From the NCBI GenBank assembly GCA_050950505.1, contig JBMNHS010000001.1, positions 448,001 to 512,000 of the forward strand: a stretch of 64,000 bases of DNA, in the 5' to 3' direction. The stretch is from Candidatus Methanomethylophilaceae archaeon. GTDB lineage: Archaea > Thermoplasmatota > Thermoplasmata > Methanomassiliicoccales > Methanomethylophilaceae. The position numbers and the translations under genes were made by a program. This document shows positions 19,737-45,466 of this stretch, in pieces; position 1 is the stretch's first letter; every line of letters begins with the position of its first letter. Below the pieces are notes generated by a model. The model saw nothing but the letters and a program-made list of their open reading frames with translations. It did no database searches and was not told the DNA's origin.

Positions 19737-19924
19737 AATTTCACCTTACCGTTAATCTTCGATAATAACATGCAAGGTTACATAAACATATCTTGGTTCT
19801 TACAGACGTTATATAGTATGCTTTGATTATTGGAAAGTACAAGTGAAACGGCACATCTTAAAACACAACGGGTTATAAACGTTGAAGATAAATGCATGTT
19901 TATCTGGTATGGGAAAATTGATTT

Positions 19925-20719
19925 ATGAAAATTGGAAAGGCCATTAAAGGGAAATTGAAAGCACTCTACAATTTCAGACACATGTATTATTCTCTGGTTC
20001 AGCGGAGTTTGTATGGGAAATACAAAAATTCCGTATTGGGATTCTTATGGAATTTTTTGACACCGACAATAACAATTCTACTGTTCTATATCGTTTTCAG
20101 TAATTTTATGGGAGGTTCAATCGATCACTTTTGGGCATATCTTTGCGTAGGTATGTTTCCTTTTCAGTTCATGAATGATAATCTGATCGGAGGTGCATCG
20201 AACATTACGTCAAACGGAGAAATGGTCAAGAAAATGTATTTTCCGAGAGAAATACTGCCTTTGTCTCAAGTCACGTACACGTTCATAGTGTTCCTCATAG
20301 CGTACGGCATAATCGCAATTTTGATGTACGCCTCAGGCGCTCTATCATTTAACGGTATATGGGCGTTCCCAATCGTTTTAGTGACGATGTTTATCTTTAC
20401 CTTTGGAACCATACTGTTCACATCCTCAATCTCTGTGTACTCCCGGGACTTTCAGTATCTTATAACAGCATTATCCAAATTACTGTTTTGGATAACTCCC
20501 ATATTCTATACGATAGAGTCTGTGTCGGGATTATTGTACAGACTGCTCTGGTTTAATCCATTGACTTATTACGTTGAAGGATTCCACAGTGTGATGTACC
20601 ACGGAACGATACCCGGAAACGGAATAATGTTGGGATGTATTGTTCTGGCGATTGCATCGCTCACGGTAGGTTTGTGGACTTTCAACAAATTGAAAGACGG
20701 ATTTGCGGAGAGAATCTGA
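19925..20719 (+). CDS. wzm: Polysaccharide ABC-2 exporter permease (Wzm/TagG-like), copy 1
   Basis: KYKNSVLGFLWNFLTP, VKKMYFPREILP, FWITPIFY, NPLTY motifs; six TM segments. Confidence 0.93.
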   Translation: MKIGKAIKGKLKALYNFRHMYYSLVQRSLYGKYKNSVLGFLWNFLTPTITILLFYIVFSNFMGGSIDHFWAYLCVGMFPFQFMNDNLIGGASNITSNGEMVKKMYFPREILPLSQVTYTFIVFLIAYGIIAILMYASGALSFNGIWAFPIVLVTMFIFTFGTILFTSSISVYSRDFQYLITALSKLLFWITPIFYTIESVSGLLYRLLWFNPLTYYVEGFHSVMYHGTIPGNGIMLGCIVLAIASLTVGLWTFNKLKDGFAERI

Positions 20720-20720
20720 A

Positions 20721-23351
20721 ATGTCCGAATATGCAGTACGTGTAAGAAATGTAAACAAATCCTTTACCACAAGAGCCGAAGATAACGATGGCGGGTTTCT
20801 TAAAAAAAGGAAAAAGATTACGAGACATGTAATCAAAAACATCAGTTTCGATATTAAAAAAGGTGAAGTTTTCGGTATAATAGGAAGAAACGGTTCAGGT
20901 AAAAGCACTACGTTGAATATGATTTCCAGGATAATGAAGCCCGATTCCGGTACCATAGAAATCAATGGAAAGGTTGCCAGTATTTTGGAACTGGGTATGG
21001 GGTTTCATAACGATTTGAGCGGAAGGGAAAATATCTACATCAAAGGAACCATGTACGGTTTCGCAAAAAATCAACTTGACGAACGGATTGAAGATATAAT
21101 CGATTATGCGGACATAGGAGAATATATCAATCTTCCCATGAGGGTATATTCTTCGGGAATGCGCAGTCGTCTGGCATTTGCAATTATGATTAACGTCGAT
21201 GCGGATATTGTGATTTTGGACGAAGTGCTTGCAACCGGAGATCTGGCGTTCAGAAAAAAATCCAGTACACATTTCATGAACATGAAAAATAAAGGTAAGA
21301 CCATAATTTTGGTCGCACACTCAATGTCAACGATGAGGGAGATGTGCGATAGGGTCGCCTGGTTGGAGAAAGGAGTCATCAGGGAAGTCGGTATTCCGAA
21401 TGTGGTTTGCGGTCATTATGAAACGGAATTGGCTGAATCTCTGGAGATAATAACGGATTTGGCGGAAGCCGGTGTTCCATATTCTCAGAACGTGTTAGGT
21501 TGCATGTACCGTGACGGAAACAAAGTCGAGAAAAATCTGGATCTGGCAATCTACTGGTTCAGAGAAGCGATAAAAAGAAGTAACGATCCTGCAAAAATAA
21601 ATTTGGCTGATTTGATCGTATCCGGAGAAGTATCTGATGATAGGGAAGATGCGTTGGATTTGTATATGAGCGCGGCCCAGAGAGGAAACAGAGACGCACG
21701 TACAAAACTATCGAGACTTCTGACTCAGAAAACGCAAGACATCAATAAAGAATTGATAGAGGGCTACAAAGAACTTTTACCCTCTGGCAATCCCCAGATT
21801 TATTACGAGTATGCTGAACTTTTAATGAAATCTGCTTGGAACAATGAAGATAGAAAAGAGGCTTTGAGGTGGTTTAAGAAAGCTTCGGAGTACGGCAACA
21901 TGCATGCTATGTACCAAGTTGCCATAATGTATCGTGATGGCACAGGACCCGAACAGAGCGATTCAAACTATCTGTCCTGGTTAAAAAAGGCGGCAGAACA
22001 TGGGCATGCGAATTCGCAATTCACTTTGGGTAATATGTACCGTGACGGAATCAAAGTGGAACATGACAATACTGAGGCGTTCTATTGGTTCAAGATGGCC
22101 GCTGACAACAATCACATTGATGCGATATTTCAAATCGCCATAATGTACCGTGAAGGAATTGGAGTGGAAAAAAATCTGGATGATTCAGATTACTGGCTCA
22201 AATTATATTCACAACACGGACTGTATCGTCAAATCAATACCCTTGCGGATTCGTTTTCGAATTGTAAAAATGAAGTGTATGACCCGGAGATGGGCATAAA
22301 ATGGTACAGGGTAAACGCGGAACACGGATACGCGGATTCGAATTATAGACTTGGGATGCTGTTGATTAATGGAAAAGATGAAGGCAGCAAATCTGATGCA
22401 ATATCTTCTTTTGTTTTTGCCGCGGAACGAAACCATTTGCTGTCTATTGCCCAATTGTTTAATCTCCATGCATTGGGTGAAGTTGATAACGTATGCAGAG
22501 ATGACTTGTTACGAAAATTAGAGGTGTTGGTTACTGGGGGAAACGTGTGGGCTGCAAACGATATAGGTATTATTTACGCAGGCGGCAAGACTGTCCAACC
22601 GGATATAGATAAAGCAATACATTATATCAAAATAATCGGTGAAGCGGGTAACGCCAACGCATTGCACAGATTAGGAATGATATACAGAGATGGCGTGTTG
22701 ATTAAACAAGATTTCGACGAAGCCGTTAAATGGTTTGAAAGAGGAGCACTCCTAGGTAACATCCATTCTGCAATGTCTTTAGTTGAACTTTATGCAATAG
22801 GCAATACAGAAGAAAATGTTTGCAAAAGAGCCATTGGGCATATCGAAAATATGTGTAAATCAGGGGATGTATTCGCCATGAAGACTTTAGGCAGATACTA
22901 TCTTGATGGCATTGCTGTAAAACAAAATTATCAAAAAGCGTTATATTGGTATGAAGTGGCTTCTAAACTAGGCGACCCTGGTGCCATATATGATTTAGGG
23001 ATGATTTATAAACACGGAAAAGGCGTGGATATGGATTTAAAGCGTGCATTAGAATTATTCATTTCATCTTCTGACCGTGGACACATCGCGTCTATAATCG
23101 CTATAATGGATATGTATAATCAGGATTCAATTGATAAAGAGTATTTTGATGTTGCATTGAGCCGCTTGGAAACATTGGCCACTGGAGGGAATATTACCGC
23201 GATGCGAAATATAGGGGACATATATTACGATGGCAGATACGGGATAAACGATTCAATGAAGGCTAAAGGGTGGTTCGAAAAAGCATCTTTATTGGGAGAT
23301 GCGCATTCTCGCAGAAAATTAGAGAATATAGAATCATTAAATAAGCCATAA
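20721..23351 (+). CDS. wzt: Wzt/TagH-type ABC ATPase fused to C-terminal SEL1-like repeats, copy 1
   Basis: Walker A GRNGSGKST, YSSGM signature, ILDEVLATGD, VAHS; then repeated LG.MY.DG..V..D...A..WF..AA units. Confidence 0.92.
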   Translation: MSEYAVRVRNVNKSFTTRAEDNDGGFLKKRKKITRHVIKNISFDIKKGEVFGIIGRNGSGKSTTLNMISRIMKPDSGTIEINGKVASILELGMGFHNDLSGRENIYIKGTMYGFAKNQLDERIEDIIDYADIGEYINLPMRVYSSGMRSRLAFAIMINVDADIVILDEVLATGDLAFRKKSSTHFMNMKNKGKTIILVAHSMSTMREMCDRVAWLEKGVIREVGIPNVVCGHYETELAESLEIITDLAEAGVPYSQNVLGCMYRDGNKVEKNLDLAIYWFREAIKRSNDPAKINLADLIVSGEVSDDREDALDLYMSAAQRGNRDARTKLSRLLTQKTQDINKELIEGYKELLPSGNPQIYYEYAELLMKSAWNNEDRKEALRWFKKASEYGNMHAMYQVAIMYRDGTGPEQSDSNYLSWLKKAAEHGHANSQFTLGNMYRDGIKVEHDNTEAFYWFKMAADNNHIDAIFQIAIMYREGIGVEKNLDDSDYWLKLYSQHGLYRQINTLADSFSNCKNEVYDPEMGIKWYRVNAEHGYADSNYRLGMLLINGKDEGSKSDAISSFVFAAERNHLLSIAQLFNLHALGEVDNVCRDDLLRKLEVLVTGGNVWAANDIGIIYAGGKTVQPDIDKAIHYIKIIGEAGNANALHRLGMIYRDGVLIKQDFDEAVKWFERGALLGNIHSAMSLVELYAIGNTEENVCKRAIGHIENMCKSGDVFAMKTLGRYYLDGIAVKQNYQKALYWYEVASKLGDPGAIYDLGMIYKHGKGVDMDLKRALELFISSSDRGHIASIIAIMDMYNQDSIDKEYFDVALSRLETLATGGNITAMRNIGDIYYDGRYGINDSMKAKGWFEKASLLGDAHSRRKLENIESLNKP

Positions 23352-23540
23352 TCAAAATGGACATGGGTTTGCAGGGGACAGAAACAAAAACCAAAATAAA
23401 CTACAGTATACATCAAATGATACACGCAAGAAATATTATACAGACTCACGCAATACTTTTAAGAAATATGTGGTGCAACCAAACGTCATCATCAAGGATA
23501 CAGGGTGATTACCATATGTTCGAAATATTTGGAGATTGTA

Positions 23541-24665
23541 ATGAAAGTCCCTGAACTGATGGAAATAATCGGAGAAGATCATTTCTATACCGGAGTTCCC
23601 GATTCGTTATTGAATAATTTTTGCAGATATGTGATGGATAAATACGGTATCGGTGAAAATCACGTTATTGGGGTAAACGAAGGAGCGTGTACCTCCCTTG
23701 CTGCGGGCAGATATCTGTCGACGGGAAAGATTCCTGTAATATATATGCAAAACAGCGGAATAGGCAATACAATCAATCCTACAGTTTCTCTTATTTCTAA
23801 AGAGGTTTACGGTATACCCTGTATCTACCTTGTCGGTTGGCGTGGTGAACCCGGAAATCACGATGAGCCTCAACACATGCTTCAGGGTAAAATCACACCG
23901 GCTTTGCTGGAGTCTTCAGGGTTGGAGACATTATACCTGACCAAAGATACAAAATATGACGATTTCAAGAGAGATTATGAAAAAATTTCGACATGTTTGA
24001 AAGACGGAAAATCTCTGGCCATAATAGTTTCCAAAGGAGCTTTGGAGTACGAGGGAAATTACAAACAATCAAATAATAACAAAATCACACGCGAAGATGC
24101 AATAAACACCCTACTGGACTGTTCCGGTAAAGGGCTCTTTATATCTACAACCGGAAAAACATCCAGAGAACTGTTCGAATTACGAAAAAAAAGAGGGGAG
24201 CCTCACGATTTTGATTTTCTTACTGTTGGATCCATGGGTTACAGTTCTTCGATTGCATTGGGTATAGCTACGGGAACAGACTGTGATGTCTGGTGTCTTG
24301 ACGGGGACGGTTCTATGTTGATGCATATGGGGGCTATGAGTATGATAGGATCGATGAAACCTCCTAATTATTTCCATGTTCTCTTCAATAATGAATCTCA
24401 CGAATCGGTTGGAGGATATCCGACACCAATAACATCAATCAATATGTGTAAGGTTGCGGAATCTTGCGGATATGCGTCAAACCATTCGGTATCAACGACT
24501 GAAGAGTTGAAATCTGTTCTAGTCGAGATCAAAAAATATCCCGGTCCTCATTTTGTTGAAGTGAAAGTGACAATCGGATCCAGAAATGATTTGGGCAGAC
24601 CAACAATTACCCCTATTGAAAACAAACAAATTTTTATGAACAAAATTAGAGGATTCAAACAATGA
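23541..24665 (+). CDS. aepY: Phosphonopyruvate decarboxylase
   Basis: GVPDSLL, NEG, YMQNSGIGN, GWRGEPG.HDEPQH, FLTVGSMG, DGDG.MLMHMG, HESVGG motifs. Confidence 0.96.
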   Translation: MKVPELMEIIGEDHFYTGVPDSLLNNFCRYVMDKYGIGENHVIGVNEGACTSLAAGRYLSTGKIPVIYMQNSGIGNTINPTVSLISKEVYGIPCIYLVGWRGEPGNHDEPQHMLQGKITPALLESSGLETLYLTKDTKYDDFKRDYEKISTCLKDGKSLAIIVSKGALEYEGNYKQSNNNKITREDAINTLLDCSGKGLFISTTGKTSRELFELRKKRGEPHDFDFLTVGSMGYSSSIALGIATGTDCDVWCLDGDGSMLMHMGAMSMIGSMKPPNYFHVLFNNESHESVGGYPTPITSINMCKVAESCGYASNHSVSTTEELKSVLVEIKKYPGPHFVEVKVTIGSRNDLGRPTITPIENKQIFMNKIRGFKQ

Positions 24666-26665
24666 AAGCACTAATCCTAAACTCCGGAAAAGGCACACGC
24701 ATGGGTAATTTAACAAAAGACGGTCCAAAATGTCTTGTTAAATTGTATGACAATACAACCATATTGGAGCGACAACTGTCTATTTTGGAAAAATACGGAA
24801 TATCCGATATAATTTTAACAACCGGACAATATGACAAGGAAATCCGTGAAGTTTGTTCGAACTACCCAAGTTTAAAATTTACATTCGTATTTAACGAACT
24901 TTACGATACCACAAACTACATATATTCAATTTATAAATCGAAGGATTGCCTGGATGACGATATATTGTTGTTACACGGGGATTTGATTTTTGAAGAATAT
25001 GTTATTTTAAGATTATTAAATTCAGAAAACAGTTGTGTGGCGGTAAACAGCCACCAGACAAATCCTAACAAAGATTTCAAAGCCGATGTATGTGACGGTC
25101 GCGTTTCAAAAATCAGTGTCGAGCCAAGATATGGAAGCGTATCTTCACAACCTGCATACAAATTGAATAAAACCGATATGGGTACATGGTTGGATAAAAT
25201 ATCGGAGTATTGCGAATCGGGAAACACGAGCTCCTACGCTGAAGAGGCATTGAACGATGTTTTAGACTCTATCGAAATGATGCCCATCAATTTGGAAAAT
25301 ATCGTTTGCATGGAGATTGATAACTTGGAAGATTTGTCCATGGCCAACGGCATGTTGATGAAACTTCCAGGGCGAAAAGTCTATCTTTCAATATCTTCGG
25401 ATGTAATCCATGACGGTCACATCAATATTATTCAATATGCGGCTTCGTTGGGAGAGCTGACTGTGGGGATAATGTCTGATGAGGCCATAGCCACTTACAA
25501 ACATTATCCCATTCTTCCATTCGAGAAAAAAAGGAAAATCATCTCCAATATCAAAGGTGTATCTCGAACCATAATGCAGGAGAAACTGAGTTATGAAGAA
25601 GTTATAACAAAATTAAAGCCCGATATCGTTGTGCACGGTGACGAATGGAGACACGGCGTATTGAGTCCCATAAGAATTGAAGTGATTGAGCTGTTGGATA
25701 AGTACGGCGGCCTTCTTATAGAACCCCCATACACCAAAGGTCAGGAGCACGGTATTCTTGAAAATAAAATCAAAGAAGAACTTTCGATACCTGAAAACAG
25801 ACGTGCCAGTCTCAAAAAATTGCTAAAATTGAAAAAATGCATCAGGGTAATGGAAGCGCATAACGGACTCACCGGACTCATCGTCGAGAAAACAAAGGTT
25901 GCACATAACGGAGAGATCAGACAGTTCGATGCAATGTGGATTTCATCACTGTGTGATTCTACCGCCAAAGGGAAACCCGACATAGAATTAGTGGATATGA
26001 CTTCGAGGATGGATACGATAAATGAGATATTGGAAGTAACAACCAAACCGATAATTTTAGACGGAGATACCGGCGGCATATTGGAACATTTCTTGTTCAA
26101 TGTGAAAACTCTTGAAAGAAGCGGAGTTTCCGCAATAATAATAGAGGATAAAATCGGATTAAAGAAAAACTCATTGTTTGGAACGGAAGTACCTCAGATG
26201 CAAGACGATCCGGATAATTTTGCAATGAAAATATCCGCGGGTAAAAAAGCTCAACTTTCAAAAGATTTTATGATTATTGCACGGATAGAGAGCTTAATCT
26301 TGGAAAAAGGGATGGATGACGCTCTTATGAGAGCTAAAAAATATGTCACTGCCGGCGCAGATGGAATAATGATACACAGTAAGAAGAAAGACCCTGCTGA
26401 AATATTCGAATTCATTGAGAGATTTAGAGGCCTCGATTCCATAACTCCTTTGGTTGTTGTTCCCACATCGTATAATCATGTCAAAGAGGATGAATTCAAA
26501 GAGAGGGGAGCGAACATCGTAATATATGCCAATCACCTCATAAGAGCAGCGTTTCCTGCCATGCAGAGTGTTGCGGAATCTATACTAAAAAATCAACGTT
26601 CTCTGGAAGTCGATGAAGATTGTTTGTCCATAAAAGAAATAATAACTCTGATTCCCGATGAGTGA
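24662..26665 (+). CDS. aepX: Trifunctional LicC/PntC-like nucleotidyltransferase + HxGH cytidylyltransferase + phosphoenolpyruvate mutase
   Basis: ALILNSGKGTRM..LT..GPKCL; D.IHDGHINII; PEP mutase EAHNGLTG, DGDTG and diagnostic EDKIGLKKNS (EDKx5NS). Confidence 0.96.
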   Translation: MKALILNSGKGTRMGNLTKDGPKCLVKLYDNTTILERQLSILEKYGISDIILTTGQYDKEIREVCSNYPSLKFTFVFNELYDTTNYIYSIYKSKDCLDDDILLLHGDLIFEEYVILRLLNSENSCVAVNSHQTNPNKDFKADVCDGRVSKISVEPRYGSVSSQPAYKLNKTDMGTWLDKISEYCESGNTSSYAEEALNDVLDSIEMMPINLENIVCMEIDNLEDLSMANGMLMKLPGRKVYLSISSDVIHDGHINIIQYAASLGELTVGIMSDEAIATYKHYPILPFEKKRKIISNIKGVSRTIMQEKLSYEEVITKLKPDIVVHGDEWRHGVLSPIRIEVIELLDKYGGLLIEPPYTKGQEHGILENKIKEELSIPENRRASLKKLLKLKKCIRVMEAHNGLTGLIVEKTKVAHNGEIRQFDAMWISSLCDSTAKGKPDIELVDMTSRMDTINEILEVTTKPIILDGDTGGILEHFLFNVKTLERSGVSAIIIEDKIGLKKNSLFGTEVPQMQDDPDNFAMKISAGKKAQLSKDFMIIARIESLILEKGMDDALMRAKKYVTAGADGIMIHSKKKDPAEIFEFIERFRGLDSITPLVVVPTSYNHVKEDEFKERGANIVIYANHLIRAAFPAMQSVAESILKNQRSLEVDEDCLSIKEIITLIPDE

Positions 26666-27729: not shown

Positions 27730-27741
27730 TATCCAGTAAAT

Positions 27742-29988: not shown

Positions 29989-29991
29989 GTT

Positions 29992-32103: not shown

Positions 32104-32422
32104 ACGCTTATCTTCACCATATATAAGTCCACAATACTAAATCGTTTTTCTCGACGGATTGAAAGAGATTCAGAACAATTCTTCAATCGTTTGCATTCAA
32201 GTTTAGCATATACGAGCCAAGGTAAATTAAGTTTGTAATATTTTATTATAATTAACTGCATGAAATGGAGATAGTTTTCAGATAACGTATAGTCTCTTTA
32301 CAAAAACTGATCAAAAAGGCTGTCATTCATTGGCTCATATCTTTTAAGTTTGCAGTTCTCGGCGGTTTCCGTTTGGCGGAAAATAATAAAATGTCTCGTG
32401 GAAGGAGAAGATTATACTAAAA

Positions 32423-34238: not shown

Positions 34239-34500
34239 ACTAAAACATCGAAACTTAACGGAAACTTCCGTTTGCAAAAGCACATATTTCAGCGAAAGTC
34301 AGAGCGATGACAGTCATTAGTTCAAACTTGGATTTTATTATTGTTTCTTGCAGAATTGCAAGTGTGAATTTAGGATCAAGTGTCAAAATATTAGTTTTCA
34401 AGTGATGAGGTGACTCGGTTTAATATAATCATGGACGACAACAAACTCATATTTTTCCTCATAATCAATTGATATCTTATTCAGTGTATAATCTATATTC

Positions 34501-36264
34501 TTACTCTAATTTTAGATATTTCATCCAGAAGTCTACATTTGTAATCTTGTCCTTATTTTTTCTATATTCTGATTTTACAATATCGTACTCTTTCCATACT
34601 GATATTAAAACTGTAAACGTCCGTTTCATTTCTTTAAGAGCACACCTTATATTCTTCGAAGTAACAAAGGCCCTTTTGTTACTGTAATCATAGTTTAGAA
34701 CCTTATGTGCACGGTTGAATTTATGATTGGGCGGGTTATAAACATTCACTGTAACATTTTTATTGGTAGGTAATATTAAATTTATAAACCAGGGGTATGG
34801 GCGAACTTTATTTTGTAAGTCTGCACCTAAATCAGAATATGAAAATTCCATTTTTAAGTTTGAAACTGGTTCTAATTTATAACCCAAAGCCATTATATTT
34901 TTGTGCAGCATCTCCCCATCTTCAGACTTTAACCAGACATATCCCCTAAGAAAGTCCTCTACGCCTTTTGTTAGCAGCTTTGCATTCTTGTATCGGTACC
35001 GAGTCATTTCTGAAGACCATTGTTTAAGATAGTCTCTTATCAGTTGTTTTTTTGTATATCCAATGTTATGAAGAGAATTCAAAATCAGCTTATTTCTTAA
35101 TATGTAATAATATGTGGATGAAGAATATTTATTTTCAAAAGGCTCATGCCAAACACATATTCCATTCAGTAGAATTAAATTACCTATATTGCGCAATCCG
35201 AATTCAATATCGTCTCCTCTGAAAAATATAGGTATCGGCAATCCATTTTCGATTATCTTTTTGAGAGGGATGGCACAGTACCACCAAGCGTTATAATCAA
35301 CAGATTCTTCAATTTCATTAAAAAGACAAGCCTCACAAGACGTCAGGTTCAAACCATTTTTTAATGAATGTACGCTCGCTCCATTCCATTTTGCGCCAGA
35401 TTCTATTTGGATATTTTGTTCATCTAAACTAAGCATGGCGCCTCCTATGAACGCATCCTGGTATTCTCTTTTTAGAATTGAAAGTATTGCGTATGTACGA
35501 TATATGGATTCAACATCGAATAAAATGTCGTCATCCATCAGTATGACATGAGTAGTCTTGTTATCACACTGAGCCTCGATCATACATCTGGCAAAACCCC
35601 CCGCACCACCGGTATTCTTATTCTTTATCAATTTAATGTAAGCAGGGTCAAATTCAGAGTCTAGCGTATTCCCATTGTCTGAGATGTATATCCTCATCTT
35701 ATCTTTTGGGAGTGGCGTATTCCCATTATCTAATACGTTTACGATCCGATTCACATTCTCAATGACGTATCGTTCTCTCTTGTAGGTGCATATACATAGT
35801 CCAAGATCAACGTGATTTATTTTACTATGGCATATTTCAGATGAATAATAGCCATCCAATATCTGAGAATAATCTTCGAGCGATATAATTTCAAAAGTTA
35901 ATATTCCAGACGATTTATCAGGATACTCAATTGTAATTTCGTCCTCAGTAACGGATCCAAAAATTATTTCATCCAATACGACGGTCTTGCATTTTTTATT
36001 AATGAGACGCTCTTTATGAATTAATCTTATGCTGAATTTACCTTTTAGGCGGAGAGTTAAGGATACGTTAGTTATTTCTGTATATTTTTTCCATTTATCG
36101 ATGTAGAAGCCATTAAAATACGTATCAAATAGTGCTACTTCCTCTGAATTTAAAGTTATGCGGCTATCATTAAAAGAGTAACACTTATCATCATTTATTC
36201 TGAAATATAAATCAAATATTGAACACACATTGGTTTTTGGAAATATTATATTCTGAAGAATCAC
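34501..36264 (-). CDS. GlfT2-like GT2 galactofuranosyltransferase
   Basis: FDTYFN.F N-terminal domain; ICTYKRE, NTGGAGGF, LMDDD, AWWYC, GDDIEFGLR, VWH motifs. Confidence 0.85.
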   Translation of the reverse strand: MILQNIIFPKTNVCSIFDLYFRINDDKCYSFNDSRITLNSEEVALFDTYFNGFYIDKWKKYTEITNVSLTLRLKGKFSIRLIHKERLINKKCKTVVLDEIIFGSVTEDEITIEYPDKSSGILTFEIISLEDYSQILDGYYSSEICHSKINHVDLGLCICTYKRERYVIENVNRIVNVLDNGNTPLPKDKMRIYISDNGNTLDSEFDPAYIKLIKNKNTGGAGGFARCMIEAQCDNKTTHVILMDDDILFDVESIYRTYAILSILKREYQDAFIGGAMLSLDEQNIQIESGAKWNGASVHSLKNGLNLTSCEACLFNEIEESVDYNAWWYCAIPLKKIIENGLPIPIFFRGDDIEFGLRNIGNLILLNGICVWHEPFENKYSSSTYYYILRNKLILNSLHNIGYTKKQLIRDYLKQWSSEMTRYRYKNAKLLTKGVEDFLRGYVWLKSEDGEMLHKNIMALGYKLEPVSNLKMEFSYSDLGADLQNKVRPYPWFINLILPTNKNVTVNVYNPPNHKFNRAHKVLNYDYSNKRAFVTSKNIRCALKEMKRTFTVLISVWKEYDIVKSEYRKNKDKITNVDFWMKYLKLE

Positions 36265-36594
36265 AGTTTGCCCTCAACCTTTAATTACAGGTCTAGATAC
36301 TATTTAATTTATTATATATTCCGACCAGATATTGCGGATGTAAGTATAGATATACTTCTGGTAAGTTTTTGACACATATTTTTGTACCACTTCCTATGAT
36401 TCTTCAACTGATAGGCTGAGATTTGCCCTCAAGAATAATCGTATTTCAAAAACAACTACCTAAGTGTGTTTCCAAATTGTACATGTTTAGGTGCCGGTAA
36501 TAAATATAGAAATTTCTGAAAACTTAAACGTTCGATGTTTGGCATACACCTATGATAGTATATATGATAGATATGGTATGGATGATGTTAATCT

Positions 36595-38130
36595 ATGGAA
36601 CTTTATAAGGTATCCACGAAGTACAAACTATGCGGATCCGACAATTTGTATTTGCGTATAAGATCGGGGGCAATCGAAAGGTTGGAAGATGTGTATATTT
36701 TACAACCGGATACCGAAATATCCACCGATACATACTTCAATCTTTTTTCAAGTTCCAAATACGGCACCCATACATCTGCTAAAAAAATAACGATAATGAC
36801 AGTTGTATCGGGTGACATAGAAGTAGAGTTACGGTATTTTACGAAACACACGGATAAACGCGTTGATTCCAGAAAAATAACATCAGACGCGGAAGCGGAA
36901 GTGTCTTTTACTTTCGATATAAGTGATTTAGACGACTCCGAGCCTGTGTGCCATTATATTCTTTACAGATCAATAAAAGCGTCTAAAATCTATTCATTCG
37001 GATCGTATATGGCGGATTCAGTGCCGAACCTTGTGAATCTCGGGGTAGTGATATGCACATTCAGGAGAGAGTTGCGGGCAATGGAGACGCTGGACAGGAT
37101 AGCGGAAATAATGCTTTCCGAGGAATATGTGACCCCGGAATTAACCGTATATCTCGTCGATAACGGGAAAACTATAGAGAATCAAGACATACGGTATGAC
37201 TTTGTCAAGTTGATACCCAATGAAAATACAGGAGGATCCGGTGGCTATACCAGGGGGATGTTGGAAGCCCGCAATGAACAAAAAACACATATTTTGTTGA
37301 TGGATGACGATGTTTACATAGATCCGAACGTAATATACAAAACGGTCAATTTCATATCTATATTGAATGAAGACCGCGCCGATTCATTCATTCTGGGCGG
37401 GATGTTATTGCCGGAATCCCCCACTGTTCAGTATGAAGCCGGCGCGGAATGGTTACCCGATTTCAGAGGCAGGAAATCAATGTTGGATCTTTCCGAAAAG
37501 GAATCTTTACTGCTTAATGATAAACGAGAACCTGCACAATACGGCGGATGGTGGTATCAATGTATGCCGGTATCCGCGACAGATAAACTACCACTTCCAT
37601 TTTTTATAAAAATGGACGATGTTTTATTCGGCATAATGCGCATGAACAATCATGTTGTAATGAATGGAATCGGAATCTGGCATGATAGTTTTGAAAGCAA
37701 AATAAATCCTGTAGTGGATTTTTATTTCTTACGAAGAAACGGTTTGATTTTGGATTCCATATTCAACAGGCGTAACGGATTCAGAATAGGTGCATATTAC
37801 ATGCGCATCTTGCTCCACTGTATCAAAAAACAAGGAAACAAGGAATATTTTTTTACTAAAATGGCCATTGAAGATTTTTTGAAAGGTCCGGACATGTTCT
37901 CAACAGTCAAAGGAGAAGACATCCTATCTATACCCGTTACGAACTATTTTGAACATCCCGACTCTAAAAATCCAACTGCCGAATCACTATTAAAAAACAA
38001 CACACTCAAGGAAATTCACAATTCGATCCGAATCTGCCTTCGTCTCTTAACAGAATGGAACTCCGTAAGTGAAAATTATAAAAAAAATATACATTACTAT
38101 TCTTCTGAAGAATTTTGGAGAAATATATGA
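36595..38130 (+). CDS. GlfT2-like GT2 galactofuranosyltransferase, paralog
   Basis: TDTYFNLFS, ICTFRRE, NTGGSGGY, LMDDD, GGWWYQC, IKMDD, IWHD motifs. Confidence 0.83.
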   Translation: MELYKVSTKYKLCGSDNLYLRIRSGAIERLEDVYILQPDTEISTDTYFNLFSSSKYGTHTSAKKITIMTVVSGDIEVELRYFTKHTDKRVDSRKITSDAEAEVSFTFDISDLDDSEPVCHYILYRSIKASKIYSFGSYMADSVPNLVNLGVVICTFRRELRAMETLDRIAEIMLSEEYVTPELTVYLVDNGKTIENQDIRYDFVKLIPNENTGGSGGYTRGMLEARNEQKTHILLMDDDVYIDPNVIYKTVNFISILNEDRADSFILGGMLLPESPTVQYEAGAEWLPDFRGRKSMLDLSEKESLLLNDKREPAQYGGWWYQCMPVSATDKLPLPFFIKMDDVLFGIMRMNNHVVMNGIGIWHDSFESKINPVVDFYFLRRNGLILDSIFNRRNGFRIGAYYMRILLHCIKKQGNKEYFFTKMAIEDFLKGPDMFSTVKGEDILSIPVTNYFEHPDSKNPTAESLLKNNTLKEIHNSIRICLRLLTEWNSVSENYKKNIHYYSSEEFWRNI

Positions 38131-38262
38131 ATCACCCGCTTCAGATATGCAAATTATCCGTATCGTGTAATTGATGCACGATTACAGAGTTTTTGTATGG
38201 GCGTGCAGTAAAGCATAAATGTATATGTCATTTCAATAATACTTCAGGCAGGACGCAGGTAT

Positions 38263-39057
38263 ATGGCATTTAGGGATGCAGTCAAAGGAAAACTGAGCGA
38301 ACTATACAGTTTCAGGCATATGTATTACTCTCTGGTACAAAGGAGCCTATTCGGAAAGTATAGGAATTCCGCATTAGGATTTCTTTGGAATTTTTTAACC
38401 CCCGCAATCTCTATTTTACTGTTCTATATTGTTTTTGAAAATTTTATGGGTCAGAATATTGACAACTACTGGGCTTACTTGTGCGTAGGAATGTTTCCGT
38501 TTCAATTTATGAATCAAAACCTTATCGGAGGAGCATCCAACATAACGTCGAATGGAGGCATGGTCAAGAAGATATACTTCCCAAGAGAAATTTTGTCATT
38601 GTCCCAAGTCACATACACATTCATCATTTTTCTGATATCCTATGGAATCGTCATATCATTAATGATCGCTACAGGCATATTTCCAACGGGGGGTTTGCTC
38701 GCTCTGCCCATTATAATTCTGACTATGTTCTTATTTTCACTAGGAACAATAATGCTGACATCTTCAATTTCAGTATATTCCCGAGATTTCGAATATCTTA
38801 TAACCGCTTTTTCAAGAGTGTTGTTCTGGGTAACGCCTATATTCTATCTGGCAGAAGCGAGGGCAGGGATATTATACACGATAATATGGTTCAACCCTCT
38901 GACGTATTTTGTAGAGGGATTTCATCACGCGGTCTGTTGGGGCACTATGCCCAGTACGGGACTGTTAATGGGTTGCGTATTGATTTCCATTGTTGTTTTC
39001 GTGATAGGAGCGTTAGTATTTTTTAAGCTCAAAGATGGATTCGCGGAGAGGATCTGA
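38263..39057 (+). CDS. wzm: Polysaccharide ABC-2 exporter permease (Wzm-like), copy 2
   Basis: Colinear, same-length paralog of 19925-20719. Confidence 0.93.
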   Translation: MAFRDAVKGKLSELYSFRHMYYSLVQRSLFGKYRNSALGFLWNFLTPAISILLFYIVFENFMGQNIDNYWAYLCVGMFPFQFMNQNLIGGASNITSNGGMVKKIYFPREILSLSQVTYTFIIFLISYGIVISLMIATGIFPTGGLLALPIIILTMFLFSLGTIMLTSSISVYSRDFEYLITAFSRVLFWVTPIFYLAEARAGILYTIIWFNPLTYFVEGFHHAVCWGTMPSTGLLMGCVLISIVVFVIGALVFFKLKDGFAERI

Positions 39058-41685
39058 GTGTCCAAATGTGCAGTACGCGTCATAAATGTGAATAAGTCAT
39101 TCACCACCATGGCAGAAACAGACGACGGCGGTCTTTTAAAGAGAAGGAAAAAGATTACAAAACACATCCTCAAAGATGTTAATTTAGACATCAAAAAAGG
39201 AGAGGTTTTCGGTATAATAGGAAGAAACGGTTCCGGAAAAAGCACCACTCTGAACATGATTTCTAAAATTATGAAACCCGATTCCGGAACAATAGAAATT
39301 AACGGTAAGGTTGCAAGCATCTTAGAATTGGGCATGGGATTTCATAACGATTTGACCGGAAGAGAAAATATCTACATTAAAGGAACAATGTACGGACTTA
39401 CCAGAAAACAATTGGATGCGAGAATGGATAACATTGTGGACTATGCCGACATTGGAGAATATATCGATCTTCCCATGCGGGTGTATTCTTCAGGAATGCG
39501 TAGCAGAGTCGCCTTCTCAATCATGATAAGTGTCGACGCGGACATAATAATTTTGGATGAAGTGTTGGCCACCGGCGATTTGGCATTCAATAAGAAATCC
39601 CGTACACATTTTTCTAACCTAAAACTTGAAGGCAAGACCATAATTCTTGTGGCACATTCCATGTCAACGATGAGGGAGATGTGCGACAGGGTGGCATGGT
39701 TGGACAACGGAGTAATAAGAGAAGTTGGCCCCCCCAATGTAGTCTGTGGCCATTATGAGACAGAGCTCGCGGAGTCTATAGATATATTAACGGAGCTCGC
39801 GGAATCGGGAGTTCCCGCATCTCAAAACACTCTCGGTTGTATGTATCGCGACGGCCACAGAGTAGAGAAAGATATGGGGAAAGCCAAGTATTGGTTCGAA
39901 GAAGCGGCTAAAAGAAATTATGATATTGCCAAGGTAAATCTTGCCGATATAATTGTAACCGATGAAGCATTGGAAAACATAGACAAGGCGATGGACCTCT
40001 ATATGAGTGCCGCAGGAAGAGGCAATCGGGAAGCGCGTACTAAATTATCCCGCTTGCTTACAAACGAGTCGCGGGACATAAGTATGGAAGTCGTAAATGA
40101 TTTCAAGGAACTGTTGTCTTCCGCGAATCCTCAGTTATATTATGAATATGCGGATTTAATATTGAAAACTGCCTGGAACAATGAGGGTCAAAGAGAAGCA
40201 TTCCTCTGGTTTGAGAAAGCCTCGGATTATGGTCACGCAACAGCCATGTATCAGATTGCATTAATGTATCGAGACGGGACGGGTATTTCTCAGAGCGATT
40301 CAGAATATATCAACTGGCTAAAGAAAGCCGCAAGATGCGGACACGCTTATTCTCAATTAATGTTAGGTAACGCGTATCGAGACGGAATCAAGGTAGATCA
40401 TGATATAGAAGAGGCCTTCATTTGGTACAAAATGGCGGCGGACAATAACAATCTTGATGCCATTTATCAGGTGGCTATGATGTATCGCAAAGGTACGGGA
40501 ATCCATGAAAGCAGAGAGGAATCAGATTACTGGCTCAAACTTTATGCACAGCACGGATTAAATCGTCAAATAAATATTCTCGCCGATTCATATGCCAATA
40601 ACAAGAATGGAGTTTTTGATATTGAGAAAGGAAAAAAATGGTACGCCGTGAACGCTGAGCATGGTTACGGTGATTCAAAATATCGTTTGGGGAATATATT
40701 GAACAGCAGTGAGGACATGGATGAAAGATTGATGGCTTCATCGATTCTCGATGAAGCTTCAAAAAATGAAAATTTCCAATCCACGGTTCAACTTTTCAAT
40801 CTTCATGCACTGGGGGAGGCTGAGAAATCCAACCTTGAAGATACGATATCGCGGTTAGATGAATTAATCGAAAAAGGAAATATGTGGTCAGCCAATACAG
40901 TAGGAAATATATTTGCCGATGCTAAAATTCTAGAATTTGACGGAACAAAGTCAATCGAATATCTAGAAAAAGCTGCTGAATCCAACATAGTTCCCGCCGT
41001 ATACAGGCTGGGGATAATATACCGTGACGGCATTTTAGTCGAGGCTGATTATTCCGAATCCCTCAAATGGTTCAAAAAGGGAGCACTTTTAAAACATGTA
41101 CCCTCTGCAATATCTATAGTGAATATGTACCTTTCAGGTGTAGTAAATCAGGCTGCCCTGGATTATGCGTTGAAAGAAATTGAAAAGATATGTCGGACAG
41201 GCAATACCCATGCCATACGAACATTGGGCGAATACTATCTGAGTGGCAAAGTCGTAGAGCAGAATTTTCAAAAAGCGATTTATTGGTATTCAGTAGGTTC
41301 AAACTTGGGAGATATCGAGTCACGATATCAACTCGGTTTGATTTATCGTGACGGCAAGGGCGTTGAGAAGAGTTTCGAGGAAGCATTAAAATGGTTTTCT
41401 TTATCCGCAAAACAAGGTGATTTCCGATCAATCATAGCCATAATACGAATGTATGGAAGCAATCATGTCGATAAAAACTCATTCGATTCAGCATTTTCAC
41501 AATTAATAGGTATTGCTAAGGGAGGCCACAGGGGCGCTATGCGTGATCTTGGAAATATTTTATACGAGGGTAAGTTGGTGTCTAAAGATTTGAATAAATC
41601 TAAAATATGGTTTGAAAGAGCAGCTATGGCAGGATGCAATTACTCCCGGGAGAAACTGGAATCCCTTAAAAAATTAGAAGAATAA
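39058..41685 (+). CDS. wzt: Wzt-type ABC ATPase fused to SEL1-like repeats, copy 2
   Basis: GRNGSGKST, YSSGM, ILDEVLATGD; SEL1 units; alignable by eye with copy 1 over its full length. Confidence 0.92.
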   Translation: MSKCAVRVINVNKSFTTMAETDDGGLLKRRKKITKHILKDVNLDIKKGEVFGIIGRNGSGKSTTLNMISKIMKPDSGTIEINGKVASILELGMGFHNDLTGRENIYIKGTMYGLTRKQLDARMDNIVDYADIGEYIDLPMRVYSSGMRSRVAFSIMISVDADIIILDEVLATGDLAFNKKSRTHFSNLKLEGKTIILVAHSMSTMREMCDRVAWLDNGVIREVGPPNVVCGHYETELAESIDILTELAESGVPASQNTLGCMYRDGHRVEKDMGKAKYWFEEAAKRNYDIAKVNLADIIVTDEALENIDKAMDLYMSAAGRGNREARTKLSRLLTNESRDISMEVVNDFKELLSSANPQLYYEYADLILKTAWNNEGQREAFLWFEKASDYGHATAMYQIALMYRDGTGISQSDSEYINWLKKAARCGHAYSQLMLGNAYRDGIKVDHDIEEAFIWYKMAADNNNLDAIYQVAMMYRKGTGIHESREESDYWLKLYAQHGLNRQINILADSYANNKNGVFDIEKGKKWYAVNAEHGYGDSKYRLGNILNSSEDMDERLMASSILDEASKNENFQSTVQLFNLHALGEAEKSNLEDTISRLDELIEKGNMWSANTVGNIFADAKILEFDGTKSIEYLEKAAESNIVPAVYRLGIIYRDGILVEADYSESLKWFKKGALLKHVPSAISIVNMYLSGVVNQAALDYALKEIEKICRTGNTHAIRTLGEYYLSGKVVEQNFQKAIYWYSVGSNLGDIESRYQLGLIYRDGKGVEKSFEEALKWFSLSAKQGDFRSIIAIIRMYGSNHVDKNSFDSAFSQLIGIAKGGHRGAMRDLGNILYEGKLVSKDLNKSKIWFERAAMAGCNYSREKLESLKKLEE

Positions 41686-45348: not shown

Positions 45349-45466
45349 CCTGTTCTGGTATGTAGATGCAGTCATTATTAAATCTATTTCCATATTCATG
45401 GTTGAACAAGTGGAATCTGATTTTTCGGTCAAGAGCGAAATCAGTCAAGACGCATGAGACAATATT

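Follow-up and report, generated by a model that had tools for sequence, protein, structure and literature searches.

Sel1-repeat tails on paralogous Wzm/Wzt-type glycan exporters in an archaeon: a candidate docking platform for tagged enzymes

Wzm/Wzt exporters and helical-repeat proteins

Wzm/Wzt exporters with a C-terminal module, such as those of Escherichia coli O9a, Klebsiella pneumoniae O12 and Aquifex aeolicus (6m96, 7k2t, 8dku), are encoded by a permease gene followed by an ATPase gene, and O-antigen clusters place polymerising glycosyltransferases and candidate chain-modifying enzymes alongside. In PMC11231755, all terminated O-polysaccharide systems are said to have the binding module on the C-terminus of the ATPase domain, and a TPR-like bundle in a terminator (K. 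pneumoniae O4 ORF7) is presented as a feature not described before. The locus described here has the same gene order, neighbouring enzyme genes of these kinds and likewise an extra module at the ATPase C-terminus. It differs in its archaeal host, in carrying a 636-residue all-helical Sel1 solenoid where O-antigen Wzt has the beta-sandwich Wzt_C, and in that some of its partner enzymes bear a matching Sel1 tag.

When compared with NCBIfam and PDB sequences, the ATPase domain matches TagGH/TarGH and the mycobacterial galactan Wzm-Wzt (6jbh, 7dd0, 9cfl, 9qfx) best, with TagH at 4.1e-61, TarH at 1.2e-54 and galactan Wzt at 2.1e-52, but scores lie below all equivalog cut-offs (207 vs 538 bits; 178 vs 400) and those systems have no Sel1 repeats. 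As in mycobacteria, a Glf mutase and GlfT2-like transferases are encoded nearby. Bacillus subtilis TagH has a different C-terminal extension.

Cytoplasmic alpha-helical modules are also known from chain-capping enzymes that serve ABC transporters (WbdD/WbbB-type terminators and O4 ORF7). In WbdD/WbbB systems the terminator bears a coiled coil and cap reading falls to a binding module of the transporter, whereas here Sel1 repeats occur on both and no coiled coil is predicted. Sel1-type solenoids organise multi-protein machines in AlgK, a Sel1/TPR lipoprotein of alginate export, and in SEL1L/Hrd3; AlgK and SEL1L both turn up in the structure and sequence searches, although they are separate proteins (periplasmic and luminal, respectively) with no fusion to an ABC ATPase. 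A Wzt/TagH-like ATPase followed by helical repeats is also seen in bacterial ABC_tran + TPR proteins (an ESM Atlas cluster of 62 members, 354 residues, Rhodothermota), whose tail, unlike that of the archaeal fusion, is short and of the TPR_14/TPR_19 type.

The glycan island and its two exporters

The window (the whole 64,000-nucleotide stretch that was analysed) contains a low-GC glycan island that holds two Wzm/Wzt pairs, galactofuranose supply, two GlfT2-like glycosyltransferases, a phosphonate pathway and LicD (Table 1). The phosphonate module (decarboxylase, PEP mutase fusion and Fe-alcohol dehydrogenase) spans 23505-27729 on the plus strand. DNA of the locus is found in sequencing runs whose labels read anaerobic digester, bioreactor, landfill or wastewater; at least half of the sampled words occur in 14 rows, and contigs of four of these were aligned with the locus.

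Table 1 Features of the glycan island, in window positions
Feature	Position	Strand	Evidence or comment
UDP-galactopyranose mutase	17656-18756	-	Pfam GLF 1.2e-82; galactofuranose precursor supply
NAD-dependent epimerase	18753-19715	-	Pfam Epimerase 1.1e-54; galactofuranose precursor supply
wzm1, ABC-2 permease	19925-20719	+	Pfam ABC2_membrane 2.7e-14; several hydrophobic segments
wzt1	20721-23351	+	Pfam ABC_tran residues 39-169, 3e-22; Sel1 8.6e-59
wzt1 ATPase domain, residues 1-240	20721-21440	+	ABC_tran 3e-22
wzt1 proximal Sel1 tail, residues 241-520, conserved half	21441-22280	+	63-64% identity to Wzt2
wzt1 distal Sel1 tail, residues 521-876 + stop codon, variable half	22281-23351	+	43-46% identity to Wzt2
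Phosphonopyruvate decarboxylase	23505-24665	+	TIGR03297 428.9 bits, cut-off 312.5
Nucleotidyltransferase + cytidylyltransferase + PEP mutase fusion	24662-26665	+	TIGR02320 416.1 bits, cut-off 319.55
Fe-alcohol dehydrogenase	26662-27729	+	Fe-ADH matches below equivalog cut-offs
Insertion element	27843-29989	+	ORFs 27931-28827 (DUF4277) and 28867-29640
LicD-family phosphotransferase with N-terminal Sel1 tag array	29992-32103	-	Pfam LicD residues 448-655, 9.7e-32; Sel1 6.4e-30
LicD Sel1 tag array, four 71-residue units, residues 48-331	31111-31962	-	Unit listing
Second transposase remnant, two ORFs	32572-34209	+	DDE_Tnp_1 1.1e-4, 5.8e-3, both below cut-off
Two GlfT2-like GT2 glycosyltransferases	34501-36264; 36595-38130	-; +	Glft2_N 1.1e-7, Glycos_transf_2 2.4e-9
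wzm2, ABC-2 permease	38263-39057	+	Pfam ABC2_membrane 1.6e-12
wzt2-Sel1	39058-41685	+	ABC_tran 4.6e-22, Sel1 5.4e-55; ATPase domain 1-240, tail 241-875
HAD-like protein, 541 residues	41730-43355	-	Pfam
Epimerase	43430-44359	-	Pfam
GT2	44356-45432	-	Pfam
GT4	45533-46516	+	Pfam

The two pairs are paralogous ABC-transporter-dependent glycan exporters. Each wzt starts 1-2 bases past the stop codon of its own wzm (wzt2 with a GTG codon directly behind the wzm2 stop) and the pairs lie 17.5 kb apart. Wzt1 and Wzt2 share 61% identity over 873 residues in a gap-free alignment, Wzm1 and Wzm2 68%; in NCBIfam, Wzm1 comes closest to the galactan-export Wzm but scores under the equivalog cut-off. In the tree, Wzt2 is sister to Wzt1 (support 100) and each has a closer relative of its own elsewhere (P0004 and P0006), so that each copy persists on its own. 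The two pairs probably stem from a duplication in this lineage, and most likely they serve two glycans.

The ATPase domains are 83% identical and their motifs (Walker A, G55-T63; signature, Y143-M147; Walker B D167 with the catalytic E168; switch histidine H200) are invariant in 38 aligned relatives. The Wzt1 domain shares 39-41% identity with A. aeolicus Wzt (TM 0.86 by target) and also matches TagH. Directly after the ATPase domain of each Wzt comes a tail of 636 residues with 18 Sel1 repeats, only 6-7 of which are scored individually by Pfam. The AlphaFold2 model of Wzt1 (pLDDT 86.8, pTM 0.70) predicts an ATPase domain to residue 239 and, with no linker, 36 short helices from 241 to 873 that form 18 pairs; the tail also matches solved Sel1 protein structures. 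Across the 38 relatives, alignment columns are less conserved in the distal half than in the proximal one, and other genera of the family match the query up to residue ~500. Both tails are acidic (net charge -10 and -6, with about -10 for the proximal half of the Wzt1 tail). Full-length relatives at 49-81% identity measure 866-880 residues, and the ORFs of other genera fall into discrete length classes of 650-836 residues.

Several claims of the original prediction are borne out by these data. Wzm/Wzt-type exporter genes are present in an archaeon, as the Pfam domains and the archaeal marker genes of the window indicate; both Wzt proteins combine an intact ATPase domain with a long SEL1 array and each lies behind a Wzm, on the evidence of Pfam, alignment and model; and a hydropathy scan of Wzt1, Wzt2 and LicD, which took in the N-termini of the longest possible ORFs, detected neither a signal peptide nor a membrane segment, the sole 'hit' being the Walker B strand. 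Because it is fused to the ATPase domain and lacks a membrane segment, the Sel1 solenoid must be cytoplasmic. The LicD protein between the exporters does carry SEL1 repeats, with the correction that these are N-terminal and are copies of one 71-residue unit, near-identical at the DNA level (a 213-bp tandem repeat of 3.6 copies at 99% identity, 31156-31917).

This LicD probably adds a CMP-activated phosphonate. The insertion element beside it (GC 0.507 vs ~0.40 around) is polymorphic between samples: in runs X4 and X9, contigs pass directly from 27842 to 29990 and lack the 2147 bases between them, and in samples without the element LicD-Sel1 directly adjoins the phosphonate operon. The second transposase remnant shows high, multi-copy depth in metagenome contigs. 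Neither GlfT2-like enzyme has a Sel1 tag by Pfam or by a search with the tag unit. The HAD-like protein matches the ribofuranosyl transferase 7shg weakly (E 8.6e-7), and the set comprising it, the epimerase, GT2 and GT4 also flanks the single Wzt-Sel1 of same-genus genomes (loci L007 and L008).

Distribution of the fusion and of the enzyme tag

A literature search found no paper on a Wzt-Sel1 fusion, in keeping with the original prediction, which knew of no characterised one. The architecture itself is not rare: ABC_tran + Sel1 is found in 117 of the 120 best listed database relatives, and the fusion accounts for two clusters (173 and 64 members) in the ESM Atlas. It occurs in 42 of 113 sampled genomes of the own family (Methanomassiliicoccales) against 0 of 87 from sister families, and the five same-genus genomes that have it show one full-length copy each. 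Across the same 200 genomes, Wzt_C scores over its cut-off in 0/113 and 25/87, respectively; a profile search did not find it in the window's genome, and it is present on five of six sampled sister-family Wzt proteins of 413-425 residues. The Sel1 solenoid takes the position held by the Wzt_C module in sister families of the same order; both this and the complementary distribution agree with the earlier proposal that a SEL1 array stands in place of the carbohydrate-binding module.

By their sequences, the Sel1 arrays of the enzymes form a subtype of their own, a 71-residue tag that is new here. Per unit, the LicD repeat reaches 29-64 bits on DUF6270, methyltransferase-DUF6270 and DUF1919/GT8 proteins but only 10-23 on Wzt tails, and a consensus common to the enzymes is visible in alignment A3. 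Tagged classes are LicD, DUF6270, methyltransferase, GT8 and DUF1919. Among the 120 rows listed, LicD+Sel1 and DUF6270+Sel1 appear 12 times each, DUF1919+Sel1 twice and GT2+Sel1 once; GT8+Sel1 is present in a same-genus genome, and in P0072 (DUF1919+ABC_tran+Sel1) an enzyme domain is fused directly to Wzt-Sel1.

At a tag threshold of E<=1e-30, a line chosen after the data had been seen, 13 of 14 tag-positive genomes also have Wzt-Sel1, compared with a base rate of 42/113. These counts include related, non-independent genomes, and the two features cluster in a few genera. A tag-type match lies on the same contig and within ~16 kb of Wzt-Sel1 in 14 genomes (11 at E<=1e-30, weaker in G030, G061 and G159). 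A tagged enzyme is found within the fetched flanks of five of the 14 fetched Wzt-Sel1 loci, as well as in the window; the flanks of the other nine contain none, although at one of these loci (L007) a tagged GT8 lies immediately beyond the flank. In G046 and G085, two same-genus genomes that have Wzt-Sel1, no tag match was obtained at E<=1e-15, so the tail must have a role that is independent of the tag.

Possible roles of the Sel1 tail

Sel1 arrays have been proposed as surface-exposed 'eukaryote-like' interaction modules in gut Methanomassiliicoccales: PMC4153887 and PMC7883539 treat Sel1 proteins as gut adaptations or adhesion factors, with means of 9.3 per genome in the host-associated clade vs 0.35 in the free-living clade. 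Adhesion to a host or partner is nevertheless highly improbable for arrays fused to a cytoplasmic ATPase domain and a LicD enzyme, in a locus whose DNA is recovered from runs labelled digester, bioreactor, landfill and wastewater. All nine Sel1-bearing ORFs of the genome (six further proteins are short and stand-alone) are free of membrane segments and of hydrophobic stretches at the N-terminus, also when read from the longest possible start; this speaks against applying the published adhesin interpretation to them. The original suggestion of a hetero-complex, one mixed transporter built from both Wzt and both Wzm proteins, fits the closely similar ATPase domains and the presence of both pairs in one island, but fares poorly: each ATPase gene abuts its own permease gene, the pairs are well separated, the same-genus genomes with the fusion show a single full-length match each and the copies are sister lineages with closer relatives of their own. 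Much like the WbdD coiled coil of E. coli O9a, a rigid solenoid of fixed length might instead set the distance from the membrane-bound polymerase and terminator to the exporter, and hence chain length, or serve as a lever that regulates the ATPase. The tight length and gap-free paralogue alignment, the discrete length classes elsewhere and the variation of the LicD array by whole 71-residue units would all suit such a ruler; we consider it doubtful, as the model gives the short helix pairs of a superhelix rather than a long coiled coil, and we know of no earlier case of a ruler built into the transporter instead of the terminator.

More credible, if still on the unlikely side, is that the solenoid reads the glycan, its concave face binding the finished chain or cap (for example, a LicD-added phosphonate) and licensing export, with the enzyme arrays binding the same polymer so that the enzymes stay on their substrate. 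The shared position and complementary distribution with Wzt_C, and the placement of binding modules in PMC11231755, are consistent with this, as is the divergence of the distal halves (43-46% identity), which would be expected for two glycans. The loci of relatives encode functions for typical cap sugars or groups (KdsA-like, NeuB, sialyltransferase-like and methyltransferase), and the sequence and structure matches include AlgK, a scaffold built of repeats that serves a polysaccharide pathway. The tag, however, is conserved across LicD/phosphonate, Kdo-like, NeuB-like and GT8 loci, which points to a constant protein partner more than to glycans that vary; at 636 residues, the tails greatly exceed the 143-position Wzt_C model; and their net acidic charge fits badly with bulk binding of a phosphonoglycan that is itself anionic. 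We know of no Sel1 repeat that has been shown to read a glycan terminus.

Our best reading, put forward tentatively, is that the tail serves as a cytoplasmic docking platform for proteins, at which tagged enzymes that decorate or terminate the chain are recruited to the exporter. The enzymes, LicD in the window and elsewhere SGNH-like DUF6270, methyltransferase, GT8 or DUF1919 proteins, would be held there by their separate, conserved 71-residue tag arrays, and the lipid-linked chain would be decorated or capped beside the pump. The conserved proximal half may form a common platform and the variable distal half confer exporter specificity, with the Wzt1 copy travelling with the phosphonate/LicD module. 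In favour of docking are the position and exclusivity with respect to Wzt_C, the fixed length, the two-zone tail and its acidity, the distinct tag and the range of enzymes that bear it, the co-occurrence, the P0072 fusion and the abutment of the phosphonate operon and LicD-Sel1 where the insertion element is absent. Against it, many Wzt-Sel1 loci have no tagged enzyme nearby, G046 and G085 have no tag match, the six other Sel1 proteins of the genome are short and stand alone, the Wzt_C complementarity fits a glycan or cap reader equally well, and a variable distal half is also expected of a glycan-specific reader. Of the scaffold originally envisaged for modifying enzymes, the LicD part gains circumstantial support from the shared tag and the co-occurrence, whereas the GlfT2-like and HAD-like enzymes also named have no tag. 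If the docking reading is correct, physical coupling would replace the cap reading carried out by a binding module in bacteria, and would tie decoration of the glycan to its export.

Two exporters in an archaeal glycan island

The source genome is a 1.33 Mb archaeal assembly in two contigs that is 99.6% complete. The window contains archaeal markers (Spt5 NGN/KOW, L10P with its insertion domain and the primase large subunit) and the named homologues belong to the Methanomassiliicoccales, Methanomethylophilus alvi among them. A glycan island occupies ~14 kb to ~60 kb of the window and the GC content of its core (14–47 kb) is 36–43%, compared with 44–52% in the remaining window, two insertion-element bins being the exception. 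Pfam bore out the original prediction's placement of two permease genes, two ATPase genes and a LicD gene in this region (see table). No RNA family was detected in an Rfam scan of the window.

Features of the glycan island and the stand-alone Sel1 genes of the same genome (C1 and C2 are its two contigs; the cut-off for the Sel1 scores, PF08238, is 30.7 bits)
Feature	Position	Strand	Domains or location
Glf mutase and epimerase			upstream part of island
wzm1	19925-20719	+	ABC2_membrane (Pfam)
wzt1	20721-23351	+	ABC_tran, residues 39-169; Sel1, 194.3 bits (Pfam)
Phosphonate module (PEP mutase, decarboxylase, Fe-alcohol dehydrogenase)	23505-27729		wzt1-licD interval
Insertion element	27843-29989		between Fe-alcohol dehydrogenase gene and licD
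LicD gene	29992-32103	minus	PF04991, residues 448-655; Sel1, 102.9 bits (Pfam)
Two insertion-element remnants in all (the element above and a second one)			flanking licD
wzm2	38263-39057	+	ABC2_membrane (Pfam)
wzt2	39058-41685	+	ABC_tran, residues 38-169; Sel1, 182.3 bits (Pfam)
HAD-like protein, epimerase, GT2, GT4			downstream of wzt2
Two GlfT2-like glycosyltransferases			glycan island
Six short Sel1 proteins (184-375 residues)	C2:36672-45264, C1:70930-71484, C1:1122386-1123947		no other domain

Each ATPase gene has an ABC-2 permease gene directly upstream of it (ends and starts at 20719/20721 and 39057/39058), an arrangement repeated in relatives, where wzm adjoins wzt-Sel1 in 14 of 14 loci. 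Apparent N-terminal extensions of Wzt-Sel1, without wzm, in three of the relatives' loci (L016, L017 and L019) were set aside as an ORF-picking artefact, tblastn recovering wzm in all of them. The ATPase domains (residues 1–240) match ABC_tran at 3e-22 in Wzt1 and 4.6e-22 in Wzt2 (Pfam), and Walker A (G55–T63), the signature (Y143–M147), Walker B D167, the catalytic E168 and the H-loop H200 are invariant in a 38-sequence alignment. By Foldseek, the nearest structure to the domain is Aquifex Wzt (39–41% identity, TM 0.86 by target; 39% for 6m96), whilst phmmer against solved structures ranks TarH, TagH and Wzt (E ~1e-54) above other ABC classes; mycobacterial Wzt is also among the nearest solved matches in these searches. 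NCBIfam scores fall below every equivalog cut-off, those for TagH and galactan Wzt included (207.3 bits vs 538, 177.8 vs 400 and 171.2 vs 320), marking the two proteins as Wzt-family ATPases with neither being the equivalog of any named exporter. The Wzt_C domain (PF14524) is absent from Wzt1 and Wzt2 at E<=0.01, with zero matches genome-wide, which places these exporters outside the cap-reading Wzt_C subtype. The system belongs to, and works like, the ABC-transporter-dependent (Wzm/Wzt) pathway, and the neighbouring glycan genes suggest that the cargo is a polymer assembled on a lipid on the cytoplasmic side. A gene for a Wzx/MurJ-type polysaccharide flippase lies distant from the island, flanked by the genes for ribosomal proteins L11 and L1 (2573–4054), so that a flippase-type route is present in the organism as well.

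In an AlphaFold2 model of Wzt1 (pLDDT 86.8, pTM 0.70) the ATPase domain closes with a helix (residues 226–239) and the Sel1 tail starts at once, running to residue 873 as 36 helices of 9–16 residues that form 18 helix pairs, with pLDDT mostly >85. The nearest solved structures to the tail are the Sel1 proteins 6ok3, 4bwr, SEL1L and LpnE (Foldseek and phmmer). Wzt1 aligns with Wzt2 over 873 residues at 61% identity with zero gaps, and their permeases are 68% identical. The identity of the ATPases is unevenly spread, at 83% in the ATPase domain, 63–64% in the proximal tail (residues 241–520) and 43–46% in the distal tail (residues 521–875).

In a quick maximum-likelihood tree (the careful search being incomplete), Wzt1 pairs with one database protein (P0004) and this pair is sister, with support of 100, to that of Wzt2 with another (P0006), a topology which indicates that the two copies stem from a duplication within this lineage. 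In the two same-genus loci examined (L007 and L008), Wzt-Sel1 has as neighbours a HAD-like protein, an epimerase, a GT2 and a GT4, and the same set flanks wzt2. We read wzt2 as the resident copy and wzt1 as part of a module added together with licD and the phosphonate genes.

Two neighbours of the exporters recur in other genomes. The 541-residue HAD-like protein (41730–43355, minus strand) weakly matches, at residues 91–271, the ribofuranosyl transferase 7shg (E 8.6e-7), and homologues of 566–615 residues accompany Wzt-Sel1, in L008 and L012 alongside a bact-PGI_C/SIS protein and in L020 without one; it may represent a PRPP-dependent ribofuranose branch. At the island edge (15362–17533) lies a protein with fn3, BspA-type LRR and Listeria–Bacteroides repeats, and BspA-type LRR or Listeria–Bacteroides-repeat proteins adjoin Wzt-Sel1 in six relatives' loci (L016, L017, L019, L020, L011 and L013). 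Such proteins may be the glycoproteins to which the exported glycan is attached, or its partners at the cell surface.

Locus DNA is found in metagenome runs labelled anaerobic digester, bioreactor, landfill and wastewater, with at least half of the locus's sampled words in 14 run rows and 16 studies among all matching runs; no RNA run is among the listed runs with locus sequence. Contigs of four runs from four studies cover parts of 19000–38999 at >=90% identity, and 162 of 561 aligned contig records reach >=99% identity over that interval. In two runs from two studies (X4 and X9), contigs join 27842 to 29990 with 87 other letters between, so that these contigs lack the insertion element and have the phosphonate operon directly next to licD-Sel1. 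The depth of this element is many times that of its flanks, pointing to a multi-copy element. Contigs of X4, X9 and a third run, X5, seem to join 19833 to 23523, dropping wzm1-wzt1, with a short side of 30–57 bases only; this is too short to establish a natural form lacking the first exporter, though such a form may exist. Joints that go back along the locus come from wzt2 contigs that cross-match wzt1.

Sel1 tails and Wzt_C domains across the order

The architecture is less exceptional than the original prediction supposed: a search of 5.8 billion proteins returned 505 at E<=1e-3 and 117 of the best 120 carry ABC_tran plus Sel1, whilst the ESM Atlas contains two ABC_tran plus Sel1 clusters, with 173 and 64 members, each of them of Thermoplasmatota origin. 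The proteins are publicly databased by the hundreds under generic names, and what the architecture loses in singularity it regains as a family-wide pattern.

We surveyed 200 other genomes of the order, 113 from the organism's own family and 87 from six other families, counting as a fusion any match crossing the ATPase/Sel1 junction. The fusion is present in 42 of the 113 own-family genomes, from nine genera, including 5 of 9 sampled same-genus genomes with one full-length match each, and in 0 of the 87 genomes of the six other families, where the best matches end by query residue 280. Wzt_C shows the reverse distribution, being found in 30 of the 87 other-family genomes (25 above the curated cut-off) and in 2 of the 113 own-family genomes, both below cut-off. 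Five of six Wzt proteins (413–425 residues) taken from the other families carry Wzt_C beside a Wzm. Sel1 tail and Wzt_C therefore share one position and are mutually exclusive by family, in line with the earlier suggestion that Sel1 repeats stand in place of a carbohydrate-binding module. Within the Wzt-Sel1 clade no tail-less members were seen. The gene is patchy between genomes, as is usual for surface-glycan loci.

The 80 loci listed by a profile search of genome contigs are all bacterial matches ending by query residue 292, with the archaeal relatives not among them, and the listing has no bearing on a fusion in bacteria. Two apparent bacterial carriers, P0025 ('MAG: Sulfurovum sp.') and P0027 ('MAG: Bacilli bacterium'), group within the clade of same-genus archaea, with residues 1–520 of P0025 identical to a protein of a same-genus genome (G085), and their labels probably reflect mis-binned contigs. 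Candidate split forms were also rejected: two 'Sel1-only' proteins (P0033 and P0037) both begin near residue 203, still within the ATPase domain, and the copy in genome G122 (locus L018, contig C1, 8358–11065) has instead a frameshift between residues 314 and 344 of the Wzt1 alignment, which reflects a disrupted gene or else a mistake in the assembly. Among these three no clean two-gene form of ATPase and tail was found.

A Sel1 tag on decorating enzymes

The LicD domain (PF04991) of the transferase scores 111.3 bits against a cut-off of 22.6. The best NCBIfam match, cholinephosphotransferase Mf1, is under cut-off (66.4 vs 225). The N-terminal part of the protein comprises four copies of one 71-residue unit (residues 48–331; hereafter the tag), encoded by a 213-bp tandem repeat of 3.6 copies at 99% identity (31156–31917). 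Such recent unit-wise expansion suggests that copy number varies, and metagenome contigs break at 31193, inside the repeat.

Using one LicD unit, we searched all frames of the organism's own genome and of the 14 relatives' loci. The unit scores 29–64 bits per copy on DUF6270, methyltransferase-DUF6270 and DUF1919/GT8 proteins and 10–23 bits on the Wzt tails, a gap that sets the enzyme-borne arrays apart as a Sel1 subtype of their own; the consensus of aligned DUF6270-Sel1 proteins from relatives is the LicD unit. Among the 120 best LicD-Sel1 matches the Sel1 partners include LicD (12), DUF6270 (12), DUF1919 (2) and GT2 (1). A GT8 with the tag lies ~6 kb from wzm in one same-genus genome, four further tagged proteins have a stretch of 400–600 residues that matches nothing in Pfam and in one protein (P0072) DUF1919 is fused directly to ABC_tran plus Sel1. 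The original prediction had named the GlfT2-like and HAD-like enzymes as possible Sel1 clients, but the tag is missing from both the window's GlfT2-like (polymerising) enzymes and its HAD-like protein.

A name search found no literature on DUF6270. When one DUF6270-Sel1 protein (L009:2418–3935) was modelled, domain and repeats together, its sole non-repeat structural match was a putative hydrolase from Bacteroides (4h08_A, Z 12.0, rmsd 3.3 over 170 residues), the other matches being repeat proteins. In the domain G13, C15 and R18 are invariant and D219 and H230 nearly so. As a lead only, DUF6270 may be an SGNH-like acyl-modifying enzyme in which cysteine replaces serine.

The enzyme tag and the Wzt Sel1 tail are genomically linked. 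A tagged enzyme lies inside the examined flanks in 5 of the 14 relatives' loci and just outside them in a sixth (L007). When the LicD array was searched against the own family, 14 of 150 genomes had matches reaching E<=1e-30, a line picked after seeing the data; 13 of these 14 are also Wzt-Sel1-positive, against a base rate of 42/113, in counts that treat related, non-independent genomes alike. The lone exception is 85% complete. Tag-type matches occur on the same contig as wzt-Sel1 and within ~16 kb of it in 14 genomes, 11 of them at E<=1e-30; the weaker matches are those of G030, G061 and G159, two of which run into the end of a contig. In two same-genus genomes that carry Wzt-Sel1, no tag match reaches E<=1e-15.

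The phosphonate genes permit a prediction of the glycan. PEP mutase (TIGR02320, 416.1 bits) and phosphonopyruvate decarboxylase (TIGR03297, 428.9 bits) score above their equivalog cut-offs of 319.55 and 312.5, the mutase shares one polypeptide with two nucleotidyltransferase domains and the Fe-alcohol dehydrogenase comes next; the trio is also found beside Wzt-Sel1 in another genus (L013). As there is no aminotransferase in the glycan island, we infer that the product is 2-hydroxyethylphosphonate, not 2-aminoethylphosphonate. The GlfT2-like enzymes would build a galactofuranose-containing chain on a lipid carrier, and PEP mutase, decarboxylase and alcohol dehydrogenase would in turn make the phosphonate. 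The fused cytidylyltransferase would activate it, as described for Fom1 (PMC6697681), and LicD would move the activated phosphonate onto the chain for export by Wzm1/Wzt1. The predicted product, a galactofuranose-containing polymer decorated via an aminotransferase-less phosphonate pathway, would be an unusual archaeal surface glycan.

Possible roles of the Sel1 tail

ABC-transporter-dependent glycan export is known mainly from bacterial O-antigens, where a small module on Wzt reads the chain cap. According to a passage of a 2024 study (PMC11231755), all terminated O-polysaccharide systems have a binding module at the C-terminus of the ATPase domain, and the same source mentions a previously undescribed TPR-like bundle in one terminator. 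The archaeal family differs in that a large protein-interaction solenoid occupies the Wzt_C position, in the window on both Wzm/Wzt exporters, and a distinct Sel1 tag is present on part of the finishing enzymes. A literature search, supplements lying outside its reach, found no published Wzt-Sel1 fusion or enzyme tag; in the portion of PMC4594306 consulted, Wzt and Sel1 appear together in a Pfam list only.

We tentatively propose that the tail is a docking platform holding tagged finishing enzymes at the exporter. In this picture the shared platform would be the proximal half, which is conserved, and specificity would reside in the variable distal half. A fuller scheme, possible but more doubtful, is a two-part docking code with the Wzt tail as receptor and the portable 71-residue tag as ligand. 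Tandem copies of the tag would have been placed on enzymes that decorate or terminate the chain and are not related to one another (LicD, SGNH-like DUF6270, methyltransferase, GT8 and DUF1919), and physical recruitment, in place of cap recognition, would couple chain finishing to export. A complex prediction for the Wzt1 tail (241–876) with the LicD tag array (1–340), both entered as alignments, returned no answer (score 0.00, no controls) and carries weight neither way. The main rival, which we think unlikely, gives the solenoid the role of Wzt_C, with the finished chain or its cap as what it would read. Both the variable distal half and the complementary distribution of Sel1 and Wzt_C fit this equally well, but the tag is constant across loci with differing sugar genes and the tails are net acidic, both of which count mildly against it.

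Length is tightly conserved (866–880 residues among relatives at 49–81% identity), as would be expected of a ruler or spacer. The WbdD molecular ruler, however, uses a long coiled coil to space its catalytic domain from the membrane and the Wzt1 model contains none, showing short paired helices instead; a measuring role appears distinctly improbable. There is little to support a mixed Wzt1/Wzt2 transporter, the hetero-complex originally raised as one option for the duplicated exporters, and we consider it very unlikely.

Least probable of all, and similarly short of support, is a role as surface adhesin. Passages of PMC4153887 and PMC7883539 count Sel1 proteins of Methanomassiliicoccales as adhesion or 'eukaryote-like' host-interaction factors. 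Judged by its sequences, this genome does not fit such a reading. Nine ORFs bear Sel1 repeats, three in the island and six short and stand-alone (three of the latter clustering on the 154-kb second contig), and none of the nine has an N-terminal hydrophobic stretch or membrane segment, even with the longest possible starts included; the earlier remark that Wzt1, Wzt2 and LicD lack signal peptides holds on the same terms. Each Wzt tail is joined to an ATPase domain that is cytoplasmic, and all nine proteins look cytoplasmic. The six short ones could be adaptors of the same system.

The docking proposal offers, alongside the family-wide pattern, a concrete two-part model that is open to testing. 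If tail and tag bind, this would be a different solution to the problem of exporting only finished chains, and the two-part code, if true, would be a new quality-control principle for ABC-transporter-dependent pathways, with a modular tag that could be reused in glycoengineering. These results bear on the gut-archaea literature that counts Sel1 proteins as adhesion or host-interaction factors. With nine cytoplasmic-looking Sel1 proteins, three of them in a glycan island, the Sel1 expansion may reflect surface-glycan diversification. If the two-part code holds, part of the 'eukaryote-like' expansion in host-associated Methanomassiliicoccales would be glycan machinery that works in the cytoplasm to diversify the surface of the cell, rather than adhesins.
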